DNA of 51,633 nucleotides from an uncultured Gammaproteobacteria bacterium (GCA_964597205.1 CAZQXM010000001.1:1-51633), one strand, 5' to 3'. Counted from the first letter of the stretch, positions 1 through 18,681 are shown. Numbers and translations are program-made. The notes: a model not told the origin generated them from the letters alone.

Positions 1-239
1 ATCAAGAACACGAACTCTACATCAAAAACAATAAATATAATGGCGAAAAGATAGTACTTAATATCAAACTGCACCTGAGCATCCATTTCAGATTTCATGC
101 CGCACTCATAAGTGTCAGCCTTCACTGCGTTCGGGCTATAAATACCAAATATTCGCTGCAAAACAGTGCTTAGGCCTAGAAGAACCAGACCATTAACCAG
201 AGCTAGAGCAGTAATTAAGCCAATTTGACCAATCATCAT
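1..239 (-). CDS. nuoA: NADH-quinone oxidoreductase subunit A (NuoA/NdhC). The N-terminal 79 aa are present and the gene runs off the left edge.
   Basis: Manual translation of the minus strand from the ATG at 239 gives MMIGQIGLITALALVNGLVLLGLSTVLQRIFGIYSPNAVKADTYECGMKSEMDAQVQFDIKYYLFAIIFIVFDVEFVFL. It contains the YECG and F..FDvE..F signature of subunit A. It is absent from the ORF track because there is no stop codon in the window. Confidence 0.8.
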   Translation of the reverse strand, partial: MMIGQIGLITALALVNGLVLLGLSTVLQRIFGIYSPNAVKADTYECGMKSEMDAQVQFDIKYYLFAIIFIVFDVEFVFL

Positions 240-298
240 AACCACTCGATTATACAGTAGGTTTTGGCTTTAGTCCTGTTATTGTGGCATAATACAAA

Positions 299-1058: not shown

Positions 1059-1999
1059 AATTACATCTTGATAAACAATTATTCAACGAAGCTATTCAAG
1101 CCAGCTCTGAGTATCTTTCTATAATTCCACCTTATATTGAAAAAGATTACTGGATAACGCTTGCGCTAAAACAGCTTGCTGCTAGTGAGTTCAGCCCCAA
1201 CATTGTTTTCAAGGGTGGCACATCACTATCTAAGGGATATAAATTAATAAATCGTTTCTCTGAAGATATAGATTTAGCCATTACTAGTGACCCAACCCTC
1301 TCAGGCAATGAGATAAAGACTCTAATTAGGTCTATAGAGAAAACTGCGACGCAAGGTTTAACAGAAACAATAATTGAAGGGGTATCAAGTAAAGGTTCTC
1401 GTTATCGCAAGTCTGTCTATAAATATCCGAGCTCTTACTCTGATTTTTCAAATCAATTAATAACAGAGATTAGCGCCTTCAATGATCATTTACCAAGCGA
1501 AGAGTTACTAATTCAAAGCCTTATCGGGCAGTTCCTAGCCGAGAAAGATATGCTAACTGACATCAAAGAGCATGGTTTAGCAGCCTTCAAGATTAATGTA
1601 CTTGATAAACGCCAAACTCTAATAGAGAAGCTAATCTCGCTAATTCGTTTCTCCTACGATATTAATGCCACTCAAAGTATCGGCTCTAAAATAAGACATT
1701 TCTATGATTTATATTACTTAGTATCAGACCCAGAGTGTGCAACGTTCATACAGAGTGGTGAGTTTATAAATAACTTCAATAGTTTACTCAAAAGTGATAA
1801 AGAGATATTTGATCACCCTGATGGCTGGGGCTCCAAGTCACTAAATGAATCACCTCTACTTAATAATTTTGACTCTTTGTGGGGTCAGCTAAAAAATATT
1901 TATCAAAAAGAGCTTGGGGCATTGGCTTATAAAGATGTACCAAAAGAAGAAGATATAGCTCGAAGCTTTAAACAGTTAATAAGTAAGCTAATGCCTTAA
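1055..1999 (+). CDS. AbiEii/AbiGii-family nucleotidyltransferase toxin (DUF1814)
   Basis: Hallmark N-terminal motif VFKGGTSLSKGYKLINRFSEDIDLAI (GGT..K...R.SxDIDl). Translationally coupled to the upstream antitoxin-like ORF. Confidence 0.8.
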   Translation: MKLHLDKQLFNEAIQASSEYLSIIPPYIEKDYWITLALKQLAASEFSPNIVFKGGTSLSKGYKLINRFSEDIDLAITSDPTLSGNEIKTLIRSIEKTATQGLTETIIEGVSSKGSRYRKSVYKYPSSYSDFSNQLITEISAFNDHLPSEELLIQSLIGQFLAEKDMLTDIKEHGLAAFKINVLDKRQTLIEKLISLIRFSYDINATQSIGSKIRHFYDLYYLVSDPECATFIQSGEFINNFNSLLKSDKEIFDHPDGWGSKSLNESPLLNNFDSLWGQLKNIYQKELGALAYKDVPKEEDIARSFKQLISKLMP

Positions 2000-2863
2000 A
2001 TACAACTCATAACAATTCTCCAGCAGCATCGCCACCGTCATCGGCCCGACACCACCCGGCACAGGGGTGATAGCCTCTGCTCTTGATAAAGCACTTTGAA
2101 ATTCAACATCACCAACCAGAGATCTTTCTTCTGGTTTCTTGTAAACAGCATTAATCCCCACATCTATAACTACCGCACCAGGCTTAAGCCAAGATCCTTG
2201 CACGAATTCTGGTTTACCAATAGCTGCTACTAATATATCTGCTTCACTAACTAACTGAGCTAAATCTTTAGAACGACTATGCGCCATGGTGACAGTAGCG
2301 TTAGCGTGATTGAGCATAATAGCAATCGGTTTACCAACCAGATTACTGCGACCTATCACCAGTGCGCGCTTACCAGAAAGTTCTACGCCAGCATCGCGCA
2401 GTAATTCCATACAACCCTTAGGTGTGCATGGATAGATAGTCTTAGTAGATCCTGTCATCAAGCGTCCCAGATTAATAGTAGTAAGACCATCGACATCTTT
2501 ATCTGGGTGAATATAATCTATGATTTCTTGAGTCTGCGCCGCAAGAGCAGCAGGCAAAGGTAACTGCAATAATATGCCGTCTACTTTAGGATCATTATTG
2601 TATTTTTCTAAGGTTTTAATTAGGTCTTCTTTAGTAGTACTCGCTGGAAGATCAGACTTAAAAGAAGCAATACCAACATCAGTGCAGGATTTTTGTTTAC
2701 TACGCACGTAGTAGTGTGAGGCGGGGTCATCGCCGACTATAATCACCGCTAAACCAGGTGCGCGCTTAGATGATTTAGTAGCTTCAGCGATCTTCTCGCT
2801 AAGCTTGCTTTTAATAGTATTAGCGACGGATTTGCCGTCGATGATTTTGGATGTTATGGGCAC
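1988..2863 (-). CDS. folD: Bifunctional methylenetetrahydrofolate dehydrogenase/cyclohydrolase
   Basis: Full-length FolD-like sequence (IIDGK..A, VIIVGDDPASHYYVRSK, DVDG, GRSNLVGKP, PVPGGVGPMT). Confidence 0.95.
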   Translation of the reverse strand: MPITSKIIDGKSVANTIKSKLSEKIAEATKSSKRAPGLAVIIVGDDPASHYYVRSKQKSCTDVGIASFKSDLPASTTKEDLIKTLEKYNNDPKVDGILLQLPLPAALAAQTQEIIDYIHPDKDVDGLTTINLGRLMTGSTKTIYPCTPKGCMELLRDAGVELSGKRALVIGRSNLVGKPIAIMLNHANATVTMAHSRSKDLAQLVSEADILVAAIGKPEFVQGSWLKPGAVVIDVGINAVYKKPEERSLVGDVEFQSALSRAEAITPVPGGVGPMTVAMLLENCYELYLRH

Positions 2864-2941
2864 AAGGAAATTGTATCAGCTAATTAAAATTATTCGCTAC
2901 TAGTGCTGGATTTCAGCTAGCTTAAATAGAATTAATTTTCC

Positions 2942-2949
2942 GGGGGGGG
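2942..2949. repeat. G8 homopolymer tract in the folD/fibre-gene-1 divergent promoter region
   Basis: CGGGGGGGGC read directly. It lies 58 nt upstream of the ATG at 3008 and about 20 nt upstream of a GATAAT -10-like hexamer (2969..2974). Confidence 0.9.
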
Positions 2950-3007
2950 CAAATAAAAAAATCTGTCGATAATAGTCTAGGCGCTTAAGCACCTGCAGGA
3001 GAATTCG

Positions 3008-5296
3008 ATGAATAAAAAATATCTAGCACTTGGATTAATATTTTTAACAACAACTAATTTTGTTAAAGCTGAAACTGTCGTTGACGCGAGATTAGATGAG
3101 CGTCTTAATAGCACTTATATCGGTAAAAAATATAACCAGAAATCAACAGCCTATCACAATACAGCATTAGGCTTCAACTCCATGCCTAAAAACTATAGAC
3201 TTGAGAGACCGGGCGTTTATGGTAGCGGCAACTCAGCACTTGGGAGCTACGCTCTATCTGAATTAACTACTGGTGAGTACAACACCGGCGTAGGGCTTGC
3301 AGCTCTACAATTCCTAACTACTGGAAGCAACAATACTGCTATCGGCGAAGGTGCTCTGAATAAAGCTTTGGAGAATTCTAACACCGCTCTTGGTTTTGAA
3401 GCTGGAATAGAACTAACAAAAGGTTCGATGAACACCCTATTAGGTTACAGAGCAGGTAAATCTAGTACTATCAATTTCACAGAAGGTAGTAACAATATTT
3501 TAATTGGTAACGAAGTAAGCACATGCACAGCAAAAGCATCTAATGAATTAAATATCGGCAACCTAATCAAAGGTGTTCTAGCTGGAACTAAGTCTGTGAC
3601 TGTAGATGGTAGCTTTGCGGCTAAGTCACTTAGCACAGCTGGTAATATAGCTGGTCAAACGCTGTCAATCACTGGACAAGGTGGGATTAAGAACCTTTCT
3701 AGCGACTCTATTGCCACTGGAACTCTTTTCAGCCGAGGACAGATTTTAACTAAAGGTATAACAAGTAATGGTGGAGCAGCTGTAACAGTAGGTAATCTAT
3801 TTGTTAGCCAAGGTTATGGAGATTTCTTCGGTGGTGTTACAACTAAAGCTACTGTCCAAGCTGATAAAGCGCTATTTCTTAAACAAAGATCATCAACTGA
3901 TACTGTCCCAACCATACCTAGTGGTTACGCCGGTTTATCAATTCATAATACTGGTAAACTTATGTACCATTCACCTATTACTGGTGAAGTTGCTGCTCCA
4001 GTAATGATAACGGAAGTGGCTAGTATTGGTGATTTAGCAGATGCCAAGACGACAAATGTAGGCGGAAGTATATTTGTTGGACAGAATAGTGGTCGTAGTG
4101 CAGGTGCCAGCTACCGCAATACAGCACTTGGTAGCGATACCATGAAAGAATCAGTAGGAACAACTGACAATACCGCAATTGGTCACTCTGCTTTAACGAA
4201 CAATACACAGGGAAATTATAACGTTGCAATTGGGTCTAACTCTTTGTTTAGTCATAGAACGGGTCATAGCAATATCGCAATCGGTCATACTGCATTATAC
4301 TTTCAAGAATCAAGCTATGACAATATCGCTATAGGTTCTGGTGCAATGTCACAGAACTTAATTGGTTCTGAATCTATAGCTATTGGAACCGAAGCTGGCG
4401 CTTCATCAAGAAAAGGTCGAGGTAATATCAACCTGGGATATCGTGCAGGTATTCGTAATGGTACGGTAGAGGATTATAGTACTGGTGATTACAATATTAA
4501 TATTGGCTATGAAGTTTCTTCTCCATCTAAAGATGGTTCAAACCAATTAAATATCGGCAACCTGATCAAAGGTAATATGGCTACAGGATCTAAGTCTGTG
4601 ACTATTGATGGTAATTTAACAACTACAGGTTTACTTAAAATTGCAGGCGGCAACCCAGGTGTCGGCAAAGTACTTACCTCAGACGCAACTGGTAACGCTA
4701 CTTGGCAAGCGGCTCCAACACCAATAATTGCAGACAATACTATTACTTCATCAAAAATACTTGACGGTTCAGTCAGTTCTGCTGATCTTGCAGTAGGTAG
4801 TGTAAAAGCTAGTCACGTAGGCTTAGGCGCCGTGGGTTCACCGCAAATACTTGATGGTTCTGTTAATGGCTCTGATCTTGCTAACAACAGTGTTTACGAC
4901 AATAAAATTGTAAATGTATCTGCAAGTAAAATCACTGGTGTAATTAGCCCAGCTCAAATACCTACAAATCTAAGTGTTCATACTGTGCAAACTCTTGGTG
5001 TTGGATTAACTACACCTCAGCGCCCTCTCCATATCAAAGATGTAATGCGTTTAGAGCCAAGATCAACTACTCCAAATCCAGCCAGTAAGGGTGATATATT
5101 CATGCACTCGACTGGCGCTCTTTGTGTCTATAATGGCAACAATTGGGATCAAATTAATGCTGGCTTAGCAGATTCTCGCTGTACAGATAGCAGCACTGAG
5201 CCAAGCATACTTTGGCAATTACAAGAAGGCTTAAGGCAACAGGCAGATCCTACTGAGCAGAAGAGATCTTTTGAGAATACACTAGGTAGAGGTTAA
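3008..5296 (+). CDS. Secreted fibre/adhesin-like repeat protein, paralog 1 (YadA-head/Hep_Hag-like repeats, no autotransporter anchor)
   Basis: AGGAG RBS. Sec-type signal peptide MNKKYLALGLIFLTTTNFVKA|ETV. Two blocks of degenerate N(T/S)A(L/I)G..AL repeats, each ending in (E/Q)LNIGNLIKG...KSVT(V/I)DG. GKVLTSDATGNATWQ and ITSSKILDGSV..DLA segments. C-terminal LHIKDVMRLEP...GDIFMHSTGALCVYNGNNWDQI motif. Confidence 0.75.
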   Translation: MNKKYLALGLIFLTTTNFVKAETVVDARLDERLNSTYIGKKYNQKSTAYHNTALGFNSMPKNYRLERPGVYGSGNSALGSYALSELTTGEYNTGVGLAALQFLTTGSNNTAIGEGALNKALENSNTALGFEAGIELTKGSMNTLLGYRAGKSSTINFTEGSNNILIGNEVSTCTAKASNELNIGNLIKGVLAGTKSVTVDGSFAAKSLSTAGNIAGQTLSITGQGGIKNLSSDSIATGTLFSRGQILTKGITSNGGAAVTVGNLFVSQGYGDFFGGVTTKATVQADKALFLKQRSSTDTVPTIPSGYAGLSIHNTGKLMYHSPITGEVAAPVMITEVASIGDLADAKTTNVGGSIFVGQNSGRSAGASYRNTALGSDTMKESVGTTDNTAIGHSALTNNTQGNYNVAIGSNSLFSHRTGHSNIAIGHTALYFQESSYDNIAIGSGAMSQNLIGSESIAIGTEAGASSRKGRGNINLGYRAGIRNGTVEDYSTGDYNINIGYEVSSPSKDGSNQLNIGNLIKGNMATGSKSVTIDGNLTTTGLLKIAGGNPGVGKVLTSDATGNATWQAAPTPIIADNTITSSKILDGSVSSADLAVGSVKASHVGLGAVGSPQILDGSVNGSDLANNSVYDNKIVNVSASKITGVISPAQIPTNLSVHTVQTLGVGLTTPQRPLHIKDVMRLEPRSTTPNPASKGDIFMHSTGALCVYNGNNWDQINAGLADSRCTDSSTEPSILWQLQEGLRQQADPTEQKRSFENTLGRG

Positions 5297-5320
5297 TAAC
5301 AAATAGGCTATTCATTAACA

Positions 5321-5353
5321 AAAAGCCCCCGATTTCTCGAGGGCTTTTTGTTT
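5321..5353 (+). terminator. Rho-independent terminator after fibre gene 1
   Basis: AGCCCCCGA-TTTC-TCGAGGGCT hairpin (9-bp stem, 1 mismatch) followed by TTTTTGTTT. An A-run upstream makes it potentially bidirectional. Confidence 0.8.
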
Positions 5354-5354
5354 C

Positions 5355-5540
5355 TAAATGGATTCTAGCAGCGCTAATTCCGTAATACAAACGCCGCAAT
5401 CCCTAGCTACAAAATGAGAGTTAATTAAGTTAAATATCAAAAATAGGCTTTAGGTCTAAACAACTAATGCCGTTAGTTGAATAAGGAAAAGCCCGCTTTA
5501 GGTATAGAGCCTTGGTGCGTCCCATTATTGAGGAAAATTT
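5355..5540 (+). repeat. Conserved leader/junction segment, copy 1 (upstream of fibre gene 2)
   Basis: About 93% identical by eye to 8868..9052. Contains the hairpin CAACTAA-TGCCG-TTAGTTG (5461..5479) and two GCTTTAGGT motifs (5448..5455, 5496..5503). Confidence 0.85.
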
Positions 5541-8408
5541 ATGAACAAGAAAATCATCGTAGCAGTGTTAGCAGCAACTACACTAAGCAACCTAGCTAGC
5601 CAAGCAGAGACAGTAACGCAAGCAAGAATTGCAACTCCTCAATACAGTACCTATATAGGTCAAGGTTATAACACCGCAGGCTACGGTCAACACAACACTG
5701 CCCTTGGTCACAATGCGCTGCCTAAGGCTGGTAGCAGCTATAACACTGCCGTTGGTAGCCATGCCTTAAGTCAATTAACTAGCGGACAGTTCAACACAGC
5801 AACAGGACTTGGCGCGCTGCAAAACTTAACCACAGGTTCTTACAACACTTCAATGGGTCAAGGCTCTATGGTTTCAGCATCAGGCAGTTCTAGTAACACT
5901 GCTATGGGCTGGTCAGCAATGTACAGCAACACAACTGGTAGCAACAACGTAGCTATCGGTAGAGATGCTGCTAACTATCTAACAACAGGTTCTAATAACG
6001 TTGCTATCGGTAGTAGCGTAGCCGGATCGACTCTGACAACAGGAAGTAACAACATCGTTATCGGTGCTAGTGCGACCCTGCCTAACGCAGCTGGTTGTCA
6101 CCAACTGAATATCGGTAATCTTATTCGCGGTATTATGACTGGAACTAAGTCAGTAACGGTAGATGGAACTTTTGCTGCTAATTCACTCAGCTCAGCAGCT
6201 GGAATTGCTGGTCAATCATTATCAGTAACTGGTGCTGGAACTTTCGGTTCAATTATCAGCACAGGGAATATAGTGAGCTTCGGATCAATTGGTACGACAG
6301 GAGCATTAACCGCAGGAACATTAGCCGTAAGCGGAGCTACCACTCTAGGTGCTGGTGCAACTATCACTAGTGGTAATTTACAAGTAAGTGCTGGTAACGT
6401 TTCTGCGCGCATTGGTAATTTCTCTGGTGGAGTGGAAGTTGGAAGCATTGCTAAATTCGATAAGAACATACTACTTAAGGAATTAGCTGACCAATCTAGC
6501 GTTGCACCACCTGCTGGATATGCAAGTCTATATGTTGGACCAACTGGCACTAAAAGACTTATTTATAAAAGCCCTGATAGCACAATACCTGCAGCAGCAG
6601 TGCTGACAGCTGAAGTTGCAAGAATTGATGAGTTATCAGATGTAATAACTACTTATAGCAGCATCCATATTGGTGCAGCTAGCGGACAAAAAGCTAGTCT
6701 CTGTCAAACTTGCAGTGATAATATCTCTCTTGGTACCTTCAACTTAAGATTGTCTAACTCTGGAGATAGTAATACCGCTCTTGGTTCTTATTCTATGAGT
6801 AATTATAACGGCGGACAAATGAATACCGCAGTAGGAGCTCATTCACTTTGGCAACTTACAAGTGGTAGCACTAACACTGTTGTTGGTCGTTCAGCCCTAT
6901 CAAATATGAGAACCGGAAACAAAAATATTGCTCTAGGTGATCATACGGGACAAAATTTAATGCAGGGTAATGGCAATATTATTATAGGTAGTTACATAAA
7001 CATTGATACAGTTGCAGGAGCTGCTTCAAACGTACTGAATATCGGAAACCTCATCAAAGGTAATATGGCAGCTGGATCTAAGTCAGTGACTATAGATGGT
7101 GCTATTAAGATTGGTTCATCAGAGCTAACAACAATTGGTACTAACAACGAGGTTCTTGTTCTTAAGAATACAACTGCTGGTCGTCCGCAGACATTGATAA
7201 ATACACTCACGGGCTCCTTATACTCAGCAAATATACGAACTGACAACCTATATATAACCAGTGGCAGTCCTCAAATGGGTTATGTGCTTACAGCTAAAGG
7301 TGCTAATGGTAGTGCAATGTGGATGCCAGCACCGACTCCAACAATTGCAGATGGTAGTATCACTTCTGCAAAAATATTAGATGGCACGATTACATCCACA
7401 GATATAGCAGATGGTTCTATCGCTGCAACTGATTTAGCTAACGCTAGCGTAAATAGCGCGAAAATCATTGACGGCTCTATCCTTCCTGTGGATATAGCTA
7501 GCGATTCAATAAGCATTAATGCTCTTAGCGATGTAATAGCAGATAAAGCAAAAAATAGCTTGTTTATCGCAACCAATGGTGGTTATTTAAGTACTGGAAT
7601 CTCAAACATTGGTATTGGTATTACAAGCTTAGGCAAAAATACTACGGGTGCAAACAACACAAGCATAGGTGCTTATAGCTTGCGCGACAACACTACTGGC
7701 GGTGCCAACGTAGCTTTAGGTCAAGCGGCTTTATTAAGAAACACCAGCGGAAACAGCAACACGGCACTAGGTTCTAATTCCTTAGAATACAACTCCACTG
7801 GAGCTACAAACGTTGCAATCGGCGTAACAACTATGAGTCTCAATACATCAGGCTCAAACAATACTGCCCTAGGAACTGGTGCCCTATTCGGTAATATTGA
7901 TGGCAATAACAATATTGGAGTTGGTCCAAATGCTGGCGGCAATATTAGTACTGGTAACGGCAATATCGCAATAGGCGCACACACAGCCGTACCTAATCCT
8001 GCAGGGTCAGACCAATTAAACATCGGCAACCTAATTACAGGTGTTATGACAGCTGGTAATAAGTCAGCAACTATCGATGGACTTCTCAATGTAGCCGGCA
8101 TAATGTCTAGTGCTCTAATAAAAGCTACGACATTACAATCTGACAAACTTAGAGTTGGTTTTGGTGGTAGTAGTCCATTTCAGGAAATAATAAATGCTCA
8201 AATTTTTGCAGCCAAGCCAAACACTCAGTTCTTGCTTAAAGGTTCTATGAATCTAGCACCACAAGCAGGTCCACCAACACTTCCAGCTGGTTACGGACAT
8301 GACATGGGCGACATGTATATGGACGACTCTGGTGCGCTTTGTGTATACAGCGGTACAGCTTGGGAAAAAGTAAGCGGACTTACTAATCCTAATGCTAACT
8401 GTAGCTAA
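5541..8408 (+). CDS. Secreted fibre/adhesin-like repeat protein, paralog 2
   Basis: Signal peptide MNKKIIVAVLAATTLSNLASQA|ETV. Three Hep_Hag-like repeat blocks, each ending in LNIGNLI(R/K/T)G...KS(V/A)T(V/I)DG. C-terminal GDMYMDDSGALCVYSGTAWEKV...NC motif. The first ~300 aa are ~80-85% identical to paralog 3. Confidence 0.75.
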   Translation: MNKKIIVAVLAATTLSNLASQAETVTQARIATPQYSTYIGQGYNTAGYGQHNTALGHNALPKAGSSYNTAVGSHALSQLTSGQFNTATGLGALQNLTTGSYNTSMGQGSMVSASGSSSNTAMGWSAMYSNTTGSNNVAIGRDAANYLTTGSNNVAIGSSVAGSTLTTGSNNIVIGASATLPNAAGCHQLNIGNLIRGIMTGTKSVTVDGTFAANSLSSAAGIAGQSLSVTGAGTFGSIISTGNIVSFGSIGTTGALTAGTLAVSGATTLGAGATITSGNLQVSAGNVSARIGNFSGGVEVGSIAKFDKNILLKELADQSSVAPPAGYASLYVGPTGTKRLIYKSPDSTIPAAAVLTAEVARIDELSDVITTYSSIHIGAASGQKASLCQTCSDNISLGTFNLRLSNSGDSNTALGSYSMSNYNGGQMNTAVGAHSLWQLTSGSTNTVVGRSALSNMRTGNKNIALGDHTGQNLMQGNGNIIIGSYINIDTVAGAASNVLNIGNLIKGNMAAGSKSVTIDGAIKIGSSELTTIGTNNEVLVLKNTTAGRPQTLINTLTGSLYSANIRTDNLYITSGSPQMGYVLTAKGANGSAMWMPAPTPTIADGSITSAKILDGTITSTDIADGSIAATDLANASVNSAKIIDGSILPVDIASDSISINALSDVIADKAKNSLFIATNGGYLSTGISNIGIGITSLGKNTTGANNTSIGAYSLRDNTTGGANVALGQAALLRNTSGNSNTALGSNSLEYNSTGATNVAIGVTTMSLNTSGSNNTALGTGALFGNIDGNNNIGVGPNAGGNISTGNGNIAIGAHTAVPNPAGSDQLNIGNLITGVMTAGNKSATIDGLLNVAGIMSSALIKATTLQSDKLRVGFGGSSPFQEIINAQIFAAKPNTQFLLKGSMNLAPQAGPPTLPAGYGHDMGDMYMDDSGALCVYSGTAWEKVSGLTNPNANCS

Positions 8409-8420
8409 AGGACAAAGACA

Positions 8421-8870
8421 ATGAACAAAATTACTAAAGCCACAGTATTAATAGCCTTCATCGCTGGTACTTTAACTGTAACAGCGGCTGAGACTACTAG
8501 TAACCCAGCGGCACTAATCCTGAATTACCATAATCCAGTTCAGGACATACCGCACTACCATCCAGCAGAAAGCCTGGAGAAGAATCTTGAGAAACACCAA
8601 AGCTACCTTAATACCCTAGCTAAGAAACAAGCAGAAGCAATTAAGACCTGCGAAGAGCTCTATATAAATGGTGAAAGAACTCGCTGCGAAGTTGAAATCA
8701 ACGATGCTTACAAGATGCTAGCGGAGATCCCAGATATTATGGATCACATTGCTCTTGAAGAAGCTAAGCCAGAAGATATTGAGATCGAAGTTGACACTGA
8801 GACGCGTCAAGTAGCTTTCTTCTTGATTAAAAAAGCATTTGGGCATCAAGCGAATAACTTAACACCATAA
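8421..8870 (+). CDS. Small secreted acidic protein, partner of fibre gene 2 (unknown function)
   Basis: 149 aa with an AAGGA RBS, starting 12 nt after the fibre-gene stop. Signal peptide ...LTVTAA|ETT and two Cys (C-x12-C). Nearly identical to 11914..12360. Confidence 0.7.
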   Translation: MNKITKATVLIAFIAGTLTVTAAETTSNPAALILNYHNPVQDIPHYHPAESLEKNLEKHQSYLNTLAKKQAEAIKTCEELYINGERTRCEVEINDAYKMLAEIPDIMDHIALEEAKPEDIEIEVDTETRQVAFFLIKKAFGHQANNLTP

Positions 8871-9052
8871 ATGGATTCTAGCAGCGCTAATTGCGCGATA
8901 CAAACACCGCAATCCCTAGCCTCAAAATGAGAGTTAATTAAGTTCAATATCAAAAATAGACTTTAGGTCTAAACAACTAATGCCGTTAGTTGAATAAGGA
9001 AAGCCCGCTTTAAGTATAGAGCCTTGGTGCGTCCCATTATTGAGGAAAATTT
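8868..9052 (+). repeat. Conserved leader/junction segment, copy 2 (upstream of fibre gene 3)
   Basis: Direct repeat of 5355..5540 that continues into the 5' ~900 bp of the downstream CDS. Confidence 0.85.
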
Positions 9053-11806
9053 ATGAACAAGAAAATCATCGCAGCAGTATTAGCAGCAAGCACTATCAGT
9101 AGTCTAGTTGCTAAAGCAGAGACAGTAACGCAAGCGAGAATTGCTGCTCCAAAATACAGCACCTATATAGGTCAAGGTTTTAACGCCGCTGGCGCAGGTC
9201 AGCACAATACAGCTATTGGTCACAGCGCTATGCCTACTGCTAGTAGCAGCTTTAATACTGCTGTCGGTAGCCATGCACTAAATAAATTAAGCAGCGGACA
9301 ATTTAATACTGGCGTCGGCCTTGGCGCATTGCAAAATTTAACGACAGGTTCAATGAACACTTCAATGGGCCAAGGTTCTATGGTCAGCGCAATTGGCTCA
9401 TCTAGCAACACTGCTATGGGCTGGTCAGCAATGTATAGCAATACTACTGGTAATAATAATGTGGCTATAGGTAAAGATGCTGCTAACTATCTCACCACAG
9501 GTTCTAACAACGTAGCAATCGGCGGTAGCGTAGCTGGATCTAGTTTAACAACTGGTTCTAATAATATTGTAATCGGTGCTAGTGCAACTCTGCCTAGCCC
9601 GACTGGATCTCACCAACTTAATATTGGTAATTTAATCAGAGGTATTATGACTGGTACTAAATCTGTAACAGTAGATGGCAGTTTCGCTGCTAACTCACTA
9701 AGTACAGCTGGTGGAATTGCTGGTGCATCACTGAAGGTAACAGGTCTCAGCACTCTAGGCACAATTACAAGCGGAGCTCTAACTAGCTCAGGGACTGTAA
9801 CAGCAACAGGCTTAAACGTAACTGGTGCTTCTACTCTAGGAGCTGGTGCAACTGTTACTACTGGCAACTTGCAAGTAAGTGCCGGTAATGTTTCTGCGCG
9901 TATTGGTAATTTTAGTGGCGGCGTTACTGTCGGTGATATAGCAACGTTCGACAAACAACTTAGCCTTAAAGAACAAGCGGCACCGACAACTGCAGCACAA
10001 GCAGGTCGCGCGGATCTATATCTAGACCAAACATCTAAGAAACTAGTTCTTCGTGATACTGCTGGTAATTCTCCAATATTAACAACAGAGAGAGCAATAC
10101 TAGGTGAACTTAAAGACGTAAGCTCTAATGATGCTCACTTCAATATCTATATTGGCTCAAATCACAAAGAGACAGACCCTAGTACGGCTCTAAGTAGCGT
10201 CTATGAATACCACAACACGGCTCTAGGTCACAACTCTCAATCTTCAGTTTTTCGCAAAACATGGAACGTAGTAGGCGAGAGAGGCACTGGTAACTCATCT
10301 TTTGGTAGCCATTCATTACAAAAACTTCAATACGGAGAGAACAATACAGCTGTTGGTCTTGCAGCACTTCAATTCGTAGAGACTGGCAGTAACAATACCG
10401 CGATTGGTAACGCAGCCCTGAATGTAGCCAAAGGCTCTTCGAATAGCGCTCTCGGAAACGATTCTTTACTAAAATTACAACAAGGTGCTGATAACGTGGC
10501 ATTTGGAGCTAGTGCTGCGAAGAATTTAACGACAGGAGATCAAAATATAATCATTGGTTCAGCTGCTGGTTATAACCTATCTAAGGGTGGCAATAATATT
10601 TTAATTGGATCTTATGCAGGATTTTCGAATACACCAGAGAAAAATTTGACCTTCGGATCTGACAATATATTAATTGGCACATATGTCACTACCACAAATA
10701 ACAATGCAACGAATGAATTAAATATCGGTAACTTAATTAAAGGTCAACTAGCAGACTTTAATGGCATACCAAAATCTGTCACTATTGAGGGTAATTTATC
10801 TACCACTGGTTCGCTCAAAGTCGCTGGTGGCAGCCCAGCAGCAGGTAAAGTACTAACATCTGATGCTACTGGTAATGCTACATGGCAAGCAGCTCCGACT
10901 TCAACTATTGCAGATGGTAGTATCACTTCCGCAAAAATACTTGATGGCACTATTGGCTCTGCTGATCTTGCAGACAAGAGCGTAACCGATGCAAAAATTG
11001 CCTCTGTAAGTGCTTCAAAGCTTGATTTCACTAATACTCCTAATACTGTAATTGGTAGTAAAGCATTATCAAAATTAAGTTCAGGTAATACAAACATTGC
11101 TATAGGACAAGAAGCTGGATCACAATTACAGTCAGGCTCAAACAATATACTCATTGGTAACAATGTACAAATAGATGTTGAGACAACAAGTAATGGTGAA
11201 ACAATGCCGGCAAACAACATGCTAAACATTGGGGATTTAATCACTGGTTACTTTGGTGACGATTGGAAACACGTCAACATTAAGGGTGACCTTTTCGTGG
11301 ACACCATACAAAATCGCCTACTACAAACAGAGAATGCAGAGATATATCAAAGTCTTTATGCGCCAAATATCAAGACTATGCATCTTGAATCAACGGTTAA
11401 CGGTACATTCTTAACAACCAGCAATGATAACTACATGGTGACAACATCTGCACAAACACTTTGGGAGAAGTATGACGCTGCATACGTAGTTATTTATACT
11501 GATAAACAAACAGCTGTAGATCCTGTGCAGATCAATATAGACTTAAGCGGGTTAAGTCATTACAGTAGAGAAGTAACCTTGCTTTTAGGTGAGATCAGGA
11601 GCACAAGTAATGCTACGTTAACCACCCAAGGTCCTGCGAAACTTAGACTTTGCCAAGGGTCACATACTAGCGTTAATGGCGGGAGGACATTTGGCAACTC
11701 CAATGATCCTGCCGACTGCCAGATGTATTCTGATTTCAACGTCCAGTTTGGCAAAGCATACAAACTGTTTAAGCATGGTGGCAATTGGAGTACAATAAAC
11801 TTCTAA
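9053..11806 (+). CDS. Secreted fibre/adhesin-like repeat protein, paralog 3 (different C-terminal domain)
   Basis: Signal peptide MNKKIIAAVLAASTISSLVAKA|ETV. Same N-terminal module as paralog 2, and shares the GKVLTSDATGNATWQAAPT.TIADGSITSAKILDG patch with paralogs 1 and 2. The last ~170 aa are unrelated to the GD(I/L/M)(F/Y)...C(V/F)Y.G..W terminus of the others. Confidence 0.75.
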   Translation: MNKKIIAAVLAASTISSLVAKAETVTQARIAAPKYSTYIGQGFNAAGAGQHNTAIGHSAMPTASSSFNTAVGSHALNKLSSGQFNTGVGLGALQNLTTGSMNTSMGQGSMVSAIGSSSNTAMGWSAMYSNTTGNNNVAIGKDAANYLTTGSNNVAIGGSVAGSSLTTGSNNIVIGASATLPSPTGSHQLNIGNLIRGIMTGTKSVTVDGSFAANSLSTAGGIAGASLKVTGLSTLGTITSGALTSSGTVTATGLNVTGASTLGAGATVTTGNLQVSAGNVSARIGNFSGGVTVGDIATFDKQLSLKEQAAPTTAAQAGRADLYLDQTSKKLVLRDTAGNSPILTTERAILGELKDVSSNDAHFNIYIGSNHKETDPSTALSSVYEYHNTALGHNSQSSVFRKTWNVVGERGTGNSSFGSHSLQKLQYGENNTAVGLAALQFVETGSNNTAIGNAALNVAKGSSNSALGNDSLLKLQQGADNVAFGASAAKNLTTGDQNIIIGSAAGYNLSKGGNNILIGSYAGFSNTPEKNLTFGSDNILIGTYVTTTNNNATNELNIGNLIKGQLADFNGIPKSVTIEGNLSTTGSLKVAGGSPAAGKVLTSDATGNATWQAAPTSTIADGSITSAKILDGTIGSADLADKSVTDAKIASVSASKLDFTNTPNTVIGSKALSKLSSGNTNIAIGQEAGSQLQSGSNNILIGNNVQIDVETTSNGETMPANNMLNIGDLITGYFGDDWKHVNIKGDLFVDTIQNRLLQTENAEIYQSLYAPNIKTMHLESTVNGTFLTTSNDNYMVTTSAQTLWEKYDAAYVVIYTDKQTAVDPVQINIDLSGLSHYSREVTLLLGEIRSTSNATLTTQGPAKLRLCQGSHTSVNGGRTFGNSNDPADCQMYSDFNVQFGKAYKLFKHGGNWSTINF

Positions 11807-11819
11807 TCAATGTCTAAAT

Positions 11820-11907
11820 GGATTGCTACATCGCTACGCTCCTCGCAATGACAAGTGCCGCGAATGACAGCTGGAGCACAGGGATCCTTCGCTTCGCTCA
11901 GGATGAC
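11820..11907. repeat. Short hairpin-unit repeat family B (units ending in ATGAC), 3 tandem units
   Basis: GGATTGCTACATCGCTACGCTCCTCGCAATGAC / GCCGCGAATGAC / GGGATCCTTCGCTTCGCTCAGGATGAC. Related to 13302..13349 and 37075..37168. Confidence 0.7.
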
Positions 11908-11913
11908 TAAAAC

Positions 11914-12360
11914 ATGAGAAACACCACATCACTACTATTAGCTTTCATCGCCGGCAGTTTCCTGACTGTAACAGCGGCTGAGACTACTAGTAATCCAGCG
12001 GCGCTAATCTTGAATTACCATAATCCAGTTCAGGACATACCGCACTATCATCCAGCAGAAAGCCTGGAGAAGAATCTTGAGAAACACCAAAGCTACCTTA
12101 ATACCCTAGCTAAGAAACAAGCAGAAGCAATTAAGACCTGCGAAGAGCTCTATATAAATGGTGAAAGAACTCGCTGCGAAGTTGAAATCAACGATGCTTA
12201 CAAGATGCTAGCGGAGATCCCAGATATTATGGATCACATTGCTCTTGAAGAAGCTAAGCCTGAAGAGATCGAGATTGAAGTGGACACTGAGACCCGGCAA
12301 GTAGCTTTCTTCTTGATTAAAAAAGCATTTGGGCATCAAGCCAATAATCCTCAGCCATAG
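11914..12360 (+). CDS. Small secreted acidic protein, partner of fibre gene 3 (paralog of 8421..8870)
   Basis: 148 aa. A stretch of >200 nt is identical by eye to the first copy. Only the signal-peptide N-terminus and the last few codons differ. Confidence 0.7.
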   Translation: MRNTTSLLLAFIAGSFLTVTAAETTSNPAALILNYHNPVQDIPHYHPAESLEKNLEKHQSYLNTLAKKQAEAIKTCEELYINGERTRCEVEINDAYKMLAEIPDIMDHIALEEAKPEEIEIEVDTETRQVAFFLIKKAFGHQANNPQP

Positions 12361-12364
12361 CTAA

Positions 12365-13255
12365 TTACATTACATAGAAACTACGATTAACTTCTCTTAC
12401 TAGAGGTTTTAATCCGATCATTTCTCGTATATCGTTTTCAATCTTCTGCGCAATGGTAGTCATAGGAGTATCTGTAGCTCTATTCTCAAAAGGATCTTGC
12501 ATATAGGTTGAGGTGTTCTCAATTAAGAAAAACACTATGGTGATGATTACAGTCAAACTAATCTCAATAAATATTGGGTACTGCTTTAAACTTAACGGGA
12601 ATATAGCCGTGAAAAGATAGATCAAAGAATGAATTAACACGCTATAAGTTTTCGGAAACACGGTGGTTTTGATGCGCTCACAAACGCCCATAGCATCAGT
12701 AAGATCTGCAATAGTCTCGTCTATCCTTACTTGCTGCACAGAATCTAATCCTTGAGTCTTAGCGAGCTTGCAGACTTGATTAGTATGCAAAGTAAGCAAA
12801 GCATTAGGTATATGTTGCTGATCTTTAACTACCTCTATATCAGCCGCACTTAGATACTTACTAATAGTAGCTATTTGATCGAGCCCTCTTAGTCTAAGAC
12901 CCAATGCGTAACACCAGGCGATTTGTCTATTAGCGAAATCCTGAATAAACTCAGGCTCAAGCTTAGTATCAAGTGACATCACCTGTCTAATTAAAGTTCT
13001 TGAACTGTTTACTACAACACCCCAGGCAGCTCTAGCTTCCCACCAGCGTTCATAAGATTGGCTAGTGCGAAATGCTATTAACAGTGAGATCGTGGTACCT
13101 AGTATGGTTGGCGCTGCAATTGGAATAATAATGCCCAGACCAGTATAGTTAGGATCTAATAGTTTAATGCCTATTAAGAACACTAAAATAGCCAGTAATT
13201 CTACTTTGACTTTACCTAGAATGAACCATATTGGTATTCGTTTGTTAATTAGCAC
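12365..13255 (-). CDS. Bestrophin/UPF0187 (YneE-like) family membrane channel protein
   Basis: Multi-TM ORF with FRTSQSYERWWEARAAWG motif, typical of bacterial bestrophin homologues. Confidence 0.7.
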   Translation of the reverse strand: MLINKRIPIWFILGKVKVELLAILVFLIGIKLLDPNYTGLGIIIPIAAPTILGTTISLLIAFRTSQSYERWWEARAAWGVVVNSSRTLIRQVMSLDTKLEPEFIQDFANRQIAWCYALGLRLRGLDQIATISKYLSAADIEVVKDQQHIPNALLTLHTNQVCKLAKTQGLDSVQQVRIDETIADLTDAMGVCERIKTTVFPKTYSVLIHSLIYLFTAIFPLSLKQYPIFIEISLTVIITIVFFLIENTSTYMQDPFENRATDTPMTTIAQKIENDIREMIGLKPLVREVNRSFYVM

Positions 13256-13301
13256 TCTAGCAGATTATAACCGTAGTAAAGGATCTCGGCTAGTTGTAAT
13301 A

Positions 13302-13349
13302 GATTGCTTCGCTTCGCTCGCAATGACAAGCGGAGCGACTCACAATGAC
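13302..13349. repeat. Repeat family B, two tandem units
   Basis: GATTGCTTCGCTTCGCTCGCAATGAC + CGGAGCGACTCACAATGAC. Confidence 0.65.
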
Positions 13350-13351
13350 TA

Positions 13352-13386
13352 CAAAAAAAAAGCCCCCGATTTCTCGAGGGCTTTTC
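13352..13386 (-). terminator. Rho-independent terminator of the RRM gene. The hairpin is identical to the one at 5321..5353.
   Basis: Same AGCCCCCGATTTCTCGAGGGCT hairpin. On the minus strand it is followed by T9. It lies 15 nt after the stop codon. Confidence 0.85.
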
Positions 13387-13397
13387 ATTTTTAGAAT

Positions 13398-13775
13398 TTA
13401 GTATCTAGAACTACTGCGATCACGATCGCGACCACCGCCGCCACCGCCGTAACCACCACGGTCACGTCCACCACCGCCGCCGTAGCCGCCGCCACCGCCG
13501 CCGCCGTAACTACGACGAGCACCGCCGCCGCCGCCACCGCCTTGGTTCTCACGTGCGAAATCGATTTTCAATTTGCGACCTTTGAACTCTTGATCATTAA
13601 GAGCATCTTTAGCTGCTCCAGCGCCTTCTGCTGATGCAAAAGTTATGAAGCCAAATCCTTTGCCTTCAATTACTCTGCAATCACTAACTTCGCCTGATTG
13701 ACTAAAAAGTTCTTTTAGTTCTTCTGATGTTACTGAGTAGCTTAGGTTCCCTACGTACAATTTATTACTTGACAT
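13398..13775 (-). CDS. Glycine-rich RNA-binding protein (single RRM plus Gly/Arg-rich tail)
   Basis: RNP2 LYVGNL and RNP1-like KGFGFITF motifs, plus a C-terminal GGGGGG/RGG-type tail. Confidence 0.9.
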   Translation of the reverse strand: MSSNKLYVGNLSYSVTSEELKELFSQSGEVSDCRVIEGKGFGFITFASAEGAGAAKDALNDQEFKGRKLKIDFARENQGGGGGGGARRSYGGGGGGGYGGGGGRDRGGYGGGGGGRDRDRSSSRY

Positions 13776-16152: not shown

Positions 16153-17412
16153 TTATCCTCCGAGGAAACTTGCTAATCCTCTTAAACTAGTTTGAAAAAA
16201 ATTAGATGAAGTCTGAATTGCAGCCTGCAAAGCAGTTTGAGCATTAGTGTATTCTTGACCAACTTTAGCAATATCAACATCTTCAATATTAGAAAGATCT
16301 TTAGTTAGCTTAGCTCCTAAATCAATCTCGTAAGCAGTAGAGGACTCTAATTTGTTAGCAAGAGATCCTACTTGACCACGAATATTACTCAACTTCTCTA
16401 AATTATAATCAGCAATAGTAAGTAAACTTTGAATAGTAGAAACGTTATTAGTGTTAAGAGCACTCTCTAGACTAGCGAACATACTTAAAAGTCCTGAGCT
16501 ACCACCAGTAGTAACACTAGGCTTCAATCCTAAATCGTTAAGCACAGACTCAGAAGAATCATTACTAATAGTTATTGAAGCGGTTGAACCGGTAGCGCTA
16601 CCGATAGGCAAACTAGTAGATAGATTTAAGAACCCGGTTGGACTATTGCGAGCAATAGAACCAAGACCACCATCAACTGGGAACTGAGCATTGATTTTAG
16701 TAATGACGCTACTAAGACTGTCACCGGCTGCAAGAGTCACAGTAGATGTAGTAATACGTCCGGCACCATCATTAACAGTAAATTTCAAAGTACCAGCAGC
16801 ACTAATACTAGGATTGACTATGACACCAGTAGCTTCAGCAGAGCTAGCTGAAGATCGTAATAGATTATTAAGACTTACACTAGACTGATTGCCATCATAA
16901 GATCTTTCACCTAGGTCAGACTCGCCAGCTTTATAGACAGCTGAGGTGAAAGCCGCGTTAGTAGCTAGTTTTAGCGGTGGAACATTCCCTTGAATACCAG
17001 AAAAAATATACTTACCAGCAGCTTTGGTATTAACCATCGACACCATCAATTCACCTAACTGGCGAACTTCTTGGGCTTGTAATACTTTTTCAGCAGCTCC
17101 ACTAGTACCATTGCTGGCAGAGACGATCAATTCACGTGCTTTGCGCACCAAATCTGAAATCGCAGTTAAAGCGCCATCGGCAGAATCGAGTTCGAGTTTA
17201 GCGTAACCAGTATTAGCTTCACGTTGCTTATTAGCTTCGATATCACCTTTGATTACCAGTGCTTTAGCAGCCTGCATCGGTGCTTCATAAGCATAGTTGT
17301 AGTTTTTGCCGGTACTAAGCTTGCTAGTAAGACCGAACAGCTTATTCTGACCGCGAGCGATTTGCTCGGTGAGTATATTTACTAGTTGATTAGTGCTTAA
17401 GCGTTCGACCAT
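16153..17412 (-). CDS. flgL: Flagellar hook-associated protein 3 (FlgL-like), copy A
   Basis: Flagellin-N-like terminus (...STGKNYNYAYEAP..AAKAL...), GKYIFSG motif and a flagellin-C-like C-terminus. Confidence 0.75.
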   Translation of the reverse strand: MVERLSTNQLVNILTEQIARGQNKLFGLTSKLSTGKNYNYAYEAPMQAAKALVIKGDIEANKQREANTGYAKLELDSADGALTAISDLVRKARELIVSASNGTSGAAEKVLQAQEVRQLGELMVSMVNTKAAGKYIFSGIQGNVPPLKLATNAAFTSAVYKAGESDLGERSYDGNQSSVSLNNLLRSSASSAEATGVIVNPSISAAGTLKFTVNDGAGRITTSTVTLAAGDSLSSVITKINAQFPVDGGLGSIARNSPTGFLNLSTSLPIGSATGSTASITISNDSSESVLNDLGLKPSVTTGGSSGLLSMFASLESALNTNNVSTIQSLLTIADYNLEKLSNIRGQVGSLANKLESSTAYEIDLGAKLTKDLSNIEDVDIAKVGQEYTNAQTALQAAIQTSSNFFQTSLRGLASFLGG

Positions 17413-17415
17413 AAT

Positions 17416-18681
17416 TTATAAAAATGTAAGAAAATCAAAAATACTCTGAGAGAATATTCTTGAAGAAATATCCAAAGTACTATTCAAGGCATTCTGAGAT
17501 TTGGTGATAGCGTTAATCGCTTCAGCGACCGGGATATCATCATTATCAGAACGTCTAACTTCTAGACTGATTTTTTCAGCAGCCTCATAACTCATTTGCG
17601 CATCGACCCGTTTAGTGAGATGTCCTAATTCAGCGCGCTTAGCTAGTACTCGAGAAATATTAGAATCTAAATCTGTTTGTGCACTCGATATAATCGCCGT
17701 ATCATTCAAACGATAACCAGCTTCAAGTTTACTTATAGTATCTAGCAGACTACCATCAGTACCACGATAAGTTCCAACAGTAAGCCCAGTATTAGTGATA
17801 GCCGTACCAACAGTAGTACCTGGTCTAACGGTGATTCGCGCTTGACCATTAGTGGAGTTGCCCGTAATTAAACTGGTATCTAGATTTAAATAGCCTGTAG
17901 GATACTGCCTAGCAATCGCACCGCTACCACCAGCAGTAACAAACGCATTATTAATACGAGTAACCATGGTTGCAAGATTGCTACCACTAAAAGTAATGTC
18001 ACCAGTATCTCTGACATTACCATTACCATCATCAATAATTAAGCGTATTTGACCAGTAGCAACTGGGTTTAAACCTGTACCAGTAGTGCCAGCTGAAGTA
18101 CCTTCGGCAGTTAAGAGCTCAGTAAGATCAACACTAGTCTGCAGACCCATTACTTGCCTTTCAGCGATAGAACCTTCTCCGCCTCTATACAACGCTGAAC
18201 GAAAATCTGCACCTTCTTGAAGAGTGACAGCTTTCTGATCACTACTAACACCAGAGAAAATATATTTATTACCAATTTTAGAATTAAGTAATTGAATAAT
18301 ATTGAGACCTTGGTTACGAACCTGCTCAGCTAAAGCAGCACGCTCAGTTGAGCCCATAGTAGCGTTAGTACCTTGAACAGCATCCTGTTTCATCTTGCTT
18401 AGAACTTCTTGTAAACCTGATAAACTGCTTTCAGCAATCTCAAGTTCAGACTTGCTTGAAGCACGAACTTCATCTAAGTGAGCATTGCGCTTAATGTTGC
18501 TAGTAAATTGTTGACTCTTAAGAGCTGCTAGAGGATCTTCATAAATAGACAACCTACGTTTACCGAGATTCATACGCTGAGTATCCTCAAAAAGACTTTG
18601 CTGATTCATCAGCACATGATCCTGTGCTAGAGAGTATTTTTGCGAACTAGATATTCGACCAAATTCTGGCATGGTAAGCAC
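17416..18681 (-). CDS. FlgL-like hook-associated/junction protein, copy B
   Basis: Paralog of 16153..17412 (NKYIFSGV, ARQYPTGYLNLDTSL vs ARNSPTGFLNLSTSL). The start may be the internal Met (MPEFGR). Confidence 0.65.
   Translation of the reverse strand: MLTMPEFGRISSSQKYSLAQDHVLMNQQSLFEDTQRMNLGKRRLSIYEDPLAALKSQQFTSNIKRNAHLDEVRASSKSELEIAESSLSGLQEVLSKMKQDAVQGTNATMGSTERAALAEQVRNQGLNIIQLLNSKIGNKYIFSGVSSDQKAVTLQEGADFRSALYRGGEGSIAERQVMGLQTSVDLTELLTAEGTSAGTTGTGLNPVATGQIRLIIDDGNGNVRDTGDITFSGSNLATMVTRINNAFVTAGGSGAIARQYPTGYLNLDTSLITGNSTNGQARITVRPGTTVGTAITNTGLTVGTYRGTDGSLLDTISKLEAGYRLNDTAIISSAQTDLDSNISRVLAKRAELGHLTKRVDAQMSYEAAEKISLEVRRSDNDDIPVAEAINAITKSQNALNSTLDISSRIFSQSIFDFLTFL

Follow-up and report, generated by a model that had tools for sequence, protein, structure and literature searches.

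Patchy gene conversion as a likely source of young flanks around old tail-fibre-like genes in a tandem cassette pair of an uncultured Vampirovibrionia genome

We analysed a 51,633-nt stretch of DNA (GCA_964597205.1, CAZQXM010000001.1:1-51633; here called the window), which is the entire longest contig (C1) of a 1.8-Mb metagenome-assembled genome (MAG) of 253 contigs, with 92% completeness and 5.4% estimated contamination. It carries two tandem cassettes, at 5355-8870 and 8868-12360, each composed of a leader, a gene for a long tail-fibre-like protein (a fibre gene) and a small open reading frame (ORF) that we term S. We consider it likely that an old tandem operon duplication lies behind the pair, and that after the fibre genes had diverged the flanks were homogenised by patchy gene conversion through general homologous recombination. 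The locus combines this tandem layout with heterogeneous synonymous divergence, a conversion tract, presence/absence polymorphism of the surrounding island, and homogenised 5′ parts of the same pair in a second species. The features of the cassettes and of the other fibre paralogs are as follows.

3008-5296, plus strand: fibre paralog 1, 762 aa, with a signal peptide and a C-terminal tip of the fibre 2 type
5355-5540, plus strand: leader 1
5541-8408, plus strand: fibre paralog 2, 955 aa, with a signal peptide
8421-8870, plus strand: small ORF S2, 149 aa, starting 12 nt past the fibre 2 stop
8559-8770, plus strand: gene-conversion tract, copy 1, 212 nt identical to 12049-12260
8868-9052, plus strand: leader 2, starting within the S2 stop codon
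9053-11806, plus strand: fibre paralog 3, 917 aa, N-terminal module as in fibre 2 (80% aa identity)
11813-11907, plus strand: spacer of dispersed short repeats (A at ~11813-11856, B at 11880-11907) in the 107-nt gap between fibre 3 and S3
11914-12360, plus strand: small ORF S3, 148 aa, with the same core as S2
12049-12260, plus strand: gene-conversion tract, copy 2 (repeat family D1)
39695-42499, minus strand: fibre paralog 4, 934 aa, with ~215 extra N-terminal residues, outside the island

An earlier note on this DNA had described the two segments as tandem duplicates with conserved flanks and a variable core. This was borne out by BLASTN, which aligned cassette 1 to cassette 2 in two colinear blocks, 5355-6421 with 8868-9912 at 79.4% identity and 8443-8857 with 11930-12347 at 94.5%, with merely three or four short patches between them. 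In 60-nt sliding windows, identity was 90–97% over the leader (5359-5540) and 70–87% over the 5′ coding region of the fibre gene, fell to 37–40% near 6230-6320, and the colinear DNA match ended at ~6420. This sliding-window comparison, proposed in the note as a check, thus revealed strongly non-uniform divergence, with flanks younger than the gene bodies. Several of the by-eye estimates were close to the measured values. The leaders, put at ~93% identical, differ at 10 of 186 columns (94.6% identity). The first ~900 bp of the fibre genes, put at ~80–85% identity as protein, are at 80% over 293 aa, with 214 nucleotide differences in the first 880 coding nt (about 76–79% identical), and the stretch of more than 200 nt free of differences in the small ORFs is the 212-nt tract. 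The further statement that the core is largely non-homologous holds for the last ~200 aa of fibres 2 and 3, which are unrelated, but not for the region before them; the two proteins are homologous to about residue 700, at 49% identity over ~780 columns.

Synonymous and nonsynonymous divergence (dS and dN) were estimated by Nei-Gojobori counts. Over 286 aligned codons of the fibre N-terminal module dS was 0.87 and dN 0.14, a dN/dS of about 0.16. Codons 48-107 of the small ORF had no differences at all (dS 0 over 60 codons), and dS climbed to 0.35–0.63 toward its 5′ end and to 0.20–0.43 toward its 3′ end. The longest identical run was 212 nt, compared with a maximum of 70 nt in 20,000 shuffles of the aligned columns. 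Older divergence flanks the identical tract in S at either end, which is most simply read as a non-reciprocal conversion patch. Within the same 212 nt, two contigs from relatives, L100 and L101, show 24 and 30 differences from S2 that change one amino acid in each case; the sites of the tract are therefore free to change. Synonymous divergence at the locus is heterogeneous, the identity of the flanks has no explanation in nucleotide constraint, and the copies group by genome, with moderate support. On these sequence comparisons we conclude that the flanks have a younger shared history than the gene bodies, and that short flank patches were copied between old tandem paralogs by gene conversion. 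Concerted evolution of the flanks, as the note had suggested, is thereby well supported: by the contrast in dS between N-terminal module and S core, by the silent differences seen in relatives, and by leader ends that are 92–100% identical within the genome vs ~50% across species.

Short mosaic patches had also been claimed inside the fibre genes. A shared 33-mer is indeed present at 7344-7376 and 10907-10939. As traces of recombination the patches were rejected: in the two that we tested (7302-7409 and 4592-4792, each vs fibre 3) the proportion of synonymous differences, pS, was 0.40 and 0.59, equal to the background of 0.52. They are ordinary conserved stretches, coding for strongly conserved protein motifs, GKVLTSDATGNATWQAAPT and IADGSITSAKILDG among them.

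The pair has a counterpart in a related species, species K, represented by the JGI contigs L098+L094 and L096/L097. There, the two genes that bound the island in the window, folD and RRM, likewise enclose two leader-fibre cassettes, in the same order: folD is followed by a leader and fibre KA (859 aa), and a second leader with fibre KB adjoins the RRM gene. The tip of KA is of the Cys-pair type found in fibres 1 and 2. That of KB is of the fibre 3 type (pairwise E 2e-5), and the middle of KB is nearer to fibre 3 (57%) than to fibre 2 (47%). Position and tip type together pair fibre 2 with KA and fibre 3 with KB, indicating that the cassette duplication is old and shared with species K. The tree of the N-terminal modules groups the fibres by genome instead, ((f2,f3)77,(KA,KB)85), with fibres 1 and 4 outside. 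Across the leader core and the greater part of the N-terminal module, KA and KB share 92–100% identity, vs about 60–88% for the cross-species pairs and for fibres 2 and 3 in the same 5′ stretch. This comparison indicates that the 5′ part is under concerted evolution, which extends further in species K than in the window. The fibre 3-type gene of species K has an extra G in a GGG run at ~468-472 of L096, and at the same place in L097, reading ATGGGGTTGG vs ATGGGTTGG. The extra G splits the gene into ORFs of 130 and 674 aa and is identical in the contigs of two samples; the gene may be either a pseudogene or one with a short slippery run.

The leaders combine a part conserved between species with ends that are alike within the genome only. 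The core (5431-5510) is 79–84% conserved in species K. The 5′ third is 92% identical between the two leaders of the window vs 46–49% to species K, and the last 30 nt are 100% identical within the genome vs 50% across species. Direct repeats of GCTTTAGGT lie in the core at 5447-5455 and 5495-5503, 48 nt apart, and likewise in leader 2; this sequence has five exact copies in the window vs 0.5 expected by chance. Leader 1 also contains a palindrome, CAACTAA/TTAGTTG, at 5461-5479, and its 3′ end forms the ribosome-binding site GAGGAAAA. Judging from conservation, the leader probably acts as a promoter. Structured RNA was considered and rejected, since there was no Rfam match and the fold energy equalled that of shuffled sequences (z = 0.03). 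Searches with the core gave no matches in public genomes, and in JGI metagenomes two contigs only. The 144 nt upstream of fibre 1 do not match the leaders.

At the borders of the cassettes the earlier note had reported a junction motif. The motif, AAATGGATT(C/G)..., occurs at 5356, 8869 and 11816, so its positions and its recurrence after paralog 3 are right; the reading at 8866 is CATAAATGGATT and not TCTAAATGGATT, because the stop codon of S2 overlaps the motif there. As a special recombination site it was rejected. The motif is simply the first bases of a dispersed repeat, A, that is also found behind the fibre genes of relatives. Repeat A has a consensus resembling GGATTGCT.C..CGCTACGCTCCTCGCAATGACA. 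The second repeat of the spacer, B, reads CCTTCGCTTCGCTCAGGATGAC; the 1.8-Mb genome has 17 exact copies of it and 65 at ≤2 mismatches. Both are intergenic, often at the 3′ ends of genes, and occur in related species as well, including behind the fibre genes in L094 and L095; a further site in the window is at 13306-13344. The first 45–55 nt of each leader (~5355-5405 in leader 1) resemble a degenerate repeat A, with 39 of 59 positions identical, where clear copies of A share 40–46 of 61–63 positions.

Signals of exchange between strains came from two further contigs. L095, from another metagenome, encodes a fibre that we term M. Its nt 72-235 match 6201-6364 of fibre 2 over 164 nt with one mismatch (99%), the tract running 35 + 128 nt through a region where fibres 2 and 3 are only 33–69% alike and a 21-nt indel apart. 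Its nt 271-470 are nearer to fibre 3 (0.70–0.96 vs 0.40–0.78), the remainder of the fibre is different, and its 3′ flank consists of the repeat spacer and an S3-type start. L102 comes from an independent ENA assembly (3x coverage). It matches the window at 99% identity from the S core via leader 2 into fibre 3, thus reproducing the junction from small ORF through leader 2 to fibre 3. Its first 170 nt, spanning repeat B and the beginning of the small ORF, are S3-type instead, producing a hybrid S3/S2 ORF. L102 could come from a strain whose position 2 holds a different body, from amplification of the fibre 3 cassette by unequal crossing-over, or from a mis-join via the 212-nt repeat. In L100 and L101 the small ORF stands behind yet other fibre ends, and L100 has the arrangement of fibre 2-type tip, S and bestrophin gene. 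From L095 and L102 we infer exchange of fibre bodies between strains via the conserved flanks. Recombinational shuffling of the variable parts, as the note had it, finds partial support in the mosaic fibre and the hybrid ORF; both contigs are short and may be assembly chimeras.

We picture the history of the locus as follows. An operon of leader/promoter, secreted tail-fibre-like gene and gene for a small secreted helical protein would have been duplicated in tandem long ago. A long divergence of the fibre genes would have followed (dS about 0.9), with the N-terminal module under purifying selection, while modules were gained and lost mid-gene and the C-terminal tips became different. Between the copies, general homologous recombination would have pasted short patches, one taking in the whole leader and the first 19 coding nt and another the 212-nt core of the small ORF, so that the flanks look much younger than the genes. 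The lack of any recombinase or reverse transcriptase among the neighbouring ORFs covered by the scan and of inverted repeats near the locus, together with the completeness of both copies, points to general homologous recombination between direct repeats as the agent. The near-identical regulatory region would drive both fibres together, presenting the same shaft base with different tips; co-expression of the two cassettes is suggested by this likeness. The near-identical flanks would further serve as homology arms, by which related strains may duplicate, delete or swap fibre bodies, within a strain as well as from one to another, probably through unequal crossing-over and allelic exchange among strains.

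Some points weigh against this history. The assignment of sequence to one copy or the other around the 212-nt perfect repeat rests on the MAG assembler, and L095 and L102 (3x) could be chimeric assemblies. The grouping by genome has moderate bootstrap values, 77 and 85, and the tips of fibre 3 and KB resemble each other weakly (26% over 54 aa). A consensus scan of the leaders returned no sigma-70-type promoter.

Young flanks around an old core would equally be expected if the whole cassette had been duplicated recently and one body was then replaced by the diverged allele of another strain, with leader and S as homology arms. L102 would suit this, being 99% identical to the window from the S core on and different upstream (repeat B and an S3-type 5′ end), as would L095, in which a fibre 2-like piece is joined to another body and a fibre 3-like 3′ flank. 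We nevertheless regard body replacement as improbable. The S tract is internal, with divergence on both sides including the last 100 nt of the ORF, which fits a conversion patch better, and the pair is shown to be old by species K, which already has both a fibre 2-type and a fibre 3-type gene in matching order.

We give slightly less credence again to an assembly artefact, in which repeat collapse or path choice made the tract and the hybrid and mosaic contigs, the true copies being uniformly diverged or strain alleles. The 5.4% contamination of the MAG, a 212-nt repeat longer than usual k-mer sizes, the coverage of just 3x for L102, and the breaking of relatives' contigs exactly at cassette borders would all allow for it. 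On the other side, the junction of S, leader 2 and fibre 3 was seen in the independent assembly, and the distinct, ancient 5′ contexts of S recur in relatives (S2 type in L100, S3 type in L095). Identity falls stepwise away from the tract with no abrupt switch, the leaders differ at 10 scattered sites and so are not collapsed, and other contigs of the MAG contain no stray cassette fragments.

Purifying selection alone, with a functional leader and a constrained S evolving slowly after one old duplication, is highly unlikely to have produced the pattern. The leader core is more conserved across species than coding sequence, and mature S is ≥95% identical in relatives at ~82% DNA identity, both as slow evolution would have it. 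However, the 24–30 differences of relatives in the tract are nearly all synonymous, where S2 and S3 have none, and the 5′ third and 3′ end of the leader are ~50% identical across species and 92–100% within the genome. Given these silent differences and leader ends, selection alone cannot account for the identity of the flanks.

We set very little store by a programmed surface-variation system (invertase, silent cassettes or diversity-generating retroelement), for which one might cite the conserved flanks around a variable body, the hybrid junction of L102 if it were an excised or amplified cassette, and a run of eight G (G8) upstream of fibre 1. Against it, each copy is a complete gene that has a leader, a ribosome-binding site, a start codon and a signal peptide to itself. 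The repeats run in direct and not in inverted orientation, and synonymous divergence in the in-gene patches is ordinary. A scan of neighbouring ORFs, though not of every ORF in the window, turned up neither a recombinase nor a reverse transcriptase. No silent cassettes or inverted repeats were found at the locus. With copies that are complete and promoter-proximal, direct repeats, and no recombinase found nearby, nothing indicates a dedicated or programmed machinery behind the surface variation suggested in the earlier note.

Direct reading of the sequences shows a Sec-type signal peptide at the start of the fibres. They consist of two or three beta-repeat modules (xGxxNTAxGxxAL), each closing in LNIGNLI.G...SVT(I/V)DG and joined by stalk and tail-fibre-like segments. 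Fibre 2 has three such 'head' modules, followed by a tail-fibre-like IADGSITSAKILDG segment and a tip with a Cys pair (YMDDSGALCVYSGTAW). Fibre 3 has a diverged middle and a different C-terminal domain of ~190 aa, ending ...NWSTINF. Fibre 1 has neither a homologous leader nor a small ORF, and is 37–38% identical to fibres 2 and 3.

Similarity to proteins elsewhere centres on the repeats. PHROG tail-spike and virion-structural families match the fibres at E 1e-18 to 1e-46, with the matches confined to the repeat modules; among these families are phrog_4636 (tail spike; E 1.8e-28 to 7.2e-38, with fibre 2 at 7e-38), phrog_6002 and phrog_23837. Homologs number in the thousands, with E down to 1e-96, mostly in Bacteroidota and annotated as 'tail fiber domain-containing'; many of these carry Peptidase_S74 and some are annotated 'trimeric autotransporter adhesin'. 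Neither Pfam (cut-off E ≤ 0.01 for fibres 1-3 and ≤ 0.001 for fibre 4) nor NCBIfam models matched the fibres. In the Pfam scan Peptidase_S74 (PF13884) and toxin domains were not detected, and none of the four paralogs had a YadA-type C-terminal beta-barrel anchor; YadA-like head and stalk repeat domains were found with neither Pfam nor NCBIfam. A search of PDB sequences with the fibres gave no match. An AlphaFold2 (AF2) model of the N-terminal module had short repeated strands, with a predicted local distance difference test score (pLDDT) of 70–88 in the first 140 residues and 57 overall, and Foldseek with this model returned generic beta-helices and tailspikes, all at E > 1. The N-terminal module was not present in genomes of the same genus, and literature searches gave nothing on such proteins in the Caenarcaniphilales lineage. 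A surface or adhesive function of the fibres seems plausible from these resemblances.

The S proteins are predicted to be secreted. S3 differs from S2 in the signal-peptide 5′ end and the last codons, and overall the two ORFs are 94% identical. The AF2 model is a helical bundle, with a pLDDT of 78 for S2 and ~90 for residues 45-145; its fold matches were insignificant. The small ORF matched nothing in Pfam, NCBIfam, PHROG or PDB sequences, and a word-based homolog search found nothing outside its own cluster. Distant homologs of S (32%) do exist in other places; the neighbour is a tail-fibre-like gene in one case and a Fic gene in two. In one contig, L003 (1456-3370; G007:C19), an S homolog (31%) is convergent with a tail-fibre-like gene, the C-terminus of which reads by eye as a chaperone domain of the Peptidase_S74 type.

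The position of S behind the fibre gene invites comparison with tip-specific chaperones and immunity proteins. S showed no Tfa homology in PHROG, Pfam or PDB and no co-variation with the tip, and it follows other tip types in L100, L101 and L095. A tip-specific chaperone or immunity function is unlikely, given S2 and S3 sequences that are near-identical while the tips are unrelated. If S acts on the fibres at all, we would expect it to do so on their constant part.

Several known systems resemble parts of this locus. Concerted evolution by gene conversion occurs in paralogs of bacterial surface proteins, tandem or dispersed, such as Neisseria opa, and in duplicated housekeeping genes (tufA/tufB). 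As in those, short tracts here appear copied by homologous recombination, with identical tracts, heterogeneous synonymous divergence and grouping by genome; unlike those, it is the conserved flanks (leader and partner gene) that are homogenised and not the variable exposed parts, in a family and host lineage that are uncharacterised.

Phages have pairs of fibre and assembly chaperone with mosaic C-termini, among them lambda stf-tfa, P2 H-G and Mu S-U (in the invertible G segment). The cassettes share with these a long fibre gene with conserved N-terminus and exchangeable distal parts, a small ORF behind it, repeat-level homology to tail-spike and structural families, and mosaicism between relatives. 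They differ in lying in the chromosome among housekeeping genes and in their Sec-type signal peptides. Their small ORF shows neither Tfa homology nor co-variation with the tip, and inverted repeats and an invertase are lacking. The Bacteroidota 'tail fiber' and 'trimeric autotransporter adhesin' proteins are alike in their xGxxNTAxGxxAL modules, signal peptide and large size, whereas the fibres of the window lack Peptidase_S74, a YadA anchor or any Pfam domain and have lineage-specific tips.

In polymorphic toxin loci such as CdiA-CT/CdiI with its orphan modules, a conserved N-terminus, variable C-terminus, small downstream ORF and tandem extra copies are likewise found. There, toxin and immunity protein co-vary; here the opposite holds, with near-identical small ORFs despite unrelated tips.

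The evolutionary mechanism is thus well known; what the locus adds are new instances of it, in this family and lineage and in their conserved leader and partner gene. We offer it as a quantified case in which patchy gene conversion keeps the flanks of a diversifying surface-fibre family, regulatory region and partner gene, alike. The locus also marks out an anchor-less secreted tail-fibre-like family, a very conserved small secreted partner, and a conserved leader element. Given how familiar the mechanism is for surface-protein families, the result is a useful annotation and not a surprise.

More speculatively, and as a possibility that we would rate well below even chances, fibre tips may be naturally exchanged at the island between folD and the RRM gene, in a Vampirovibrionia lineage that is possibly epibiotic or predatory. 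Conversion would keep the leader, N-terminal base and secreted S near-identical, supplying portable homology arms for swapping or amplifying bodies with host- or prey-binding tips. S might then be a universal anchoring or assembly factor on the constant base, in a new, anchor-less display of tail-fibre-like adhesins.

Relatives of the FolD protein place the genome in the Melainabacteria/Vampirovibrionia, order Caenarcaniphilales, which are non-photosynthetic relatives of cyanobacteria. The neighbours of the locus are folD, bestrophin, RRM, flgK and AbiE genes, with no other phage genes nearby.

330-1999: AbiEii/DUF6088 toxin-antitoxin (AbiE) pair, just beyond folD
1988-2863, minus strand: folD
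5317-5352, plus strand: G+C-rich terminator-type hairpin after fibre 1 (repeat family D13)
12365-13255, minus strand: bestrophin-family channel gene at the right end of the island, not in the empty site of L006
13354-13393: terminator hairpin, second copy
13398-13775, minus strand: RRM/glycine-rich protein gene, with flgK beyond

The island is a variable chromosomal segment bounded by folD and the RRM gene. L006, a contig of a related MAG with ~78% nt identity, is colinear with the window from the flagellar genes to folD. Its gap between the RRM gene and folD (3356-3431, vs 2879-13353 in the window) has just the 31-nt dispersed repeat (B) and the terminator hairpin, so that the ~10.4-kb block of fibre, small-ORF and bestrophin genes is absent, leaving an empty site. 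The hairpin has one copy in this empty site and two in the window.

The G8 run lies at 2942-2949, within the 144 nt that separate the divergent folD and fibre 1 genes. The AbiE pair is absent in the relatives L006 and L098, where the equivalent of window 6-254 directly adjoins folD, and on this comparison it looks like a separate insertion. Upstream of flgK, at 16153-18681 on the minus strand, are two adjacent flagellin/FlgL-like genes encoding 419 and 421 aa. The 419-aa gene, the one of the two given a Pfam scan, matched Flagellin_N and Flagellin_C.

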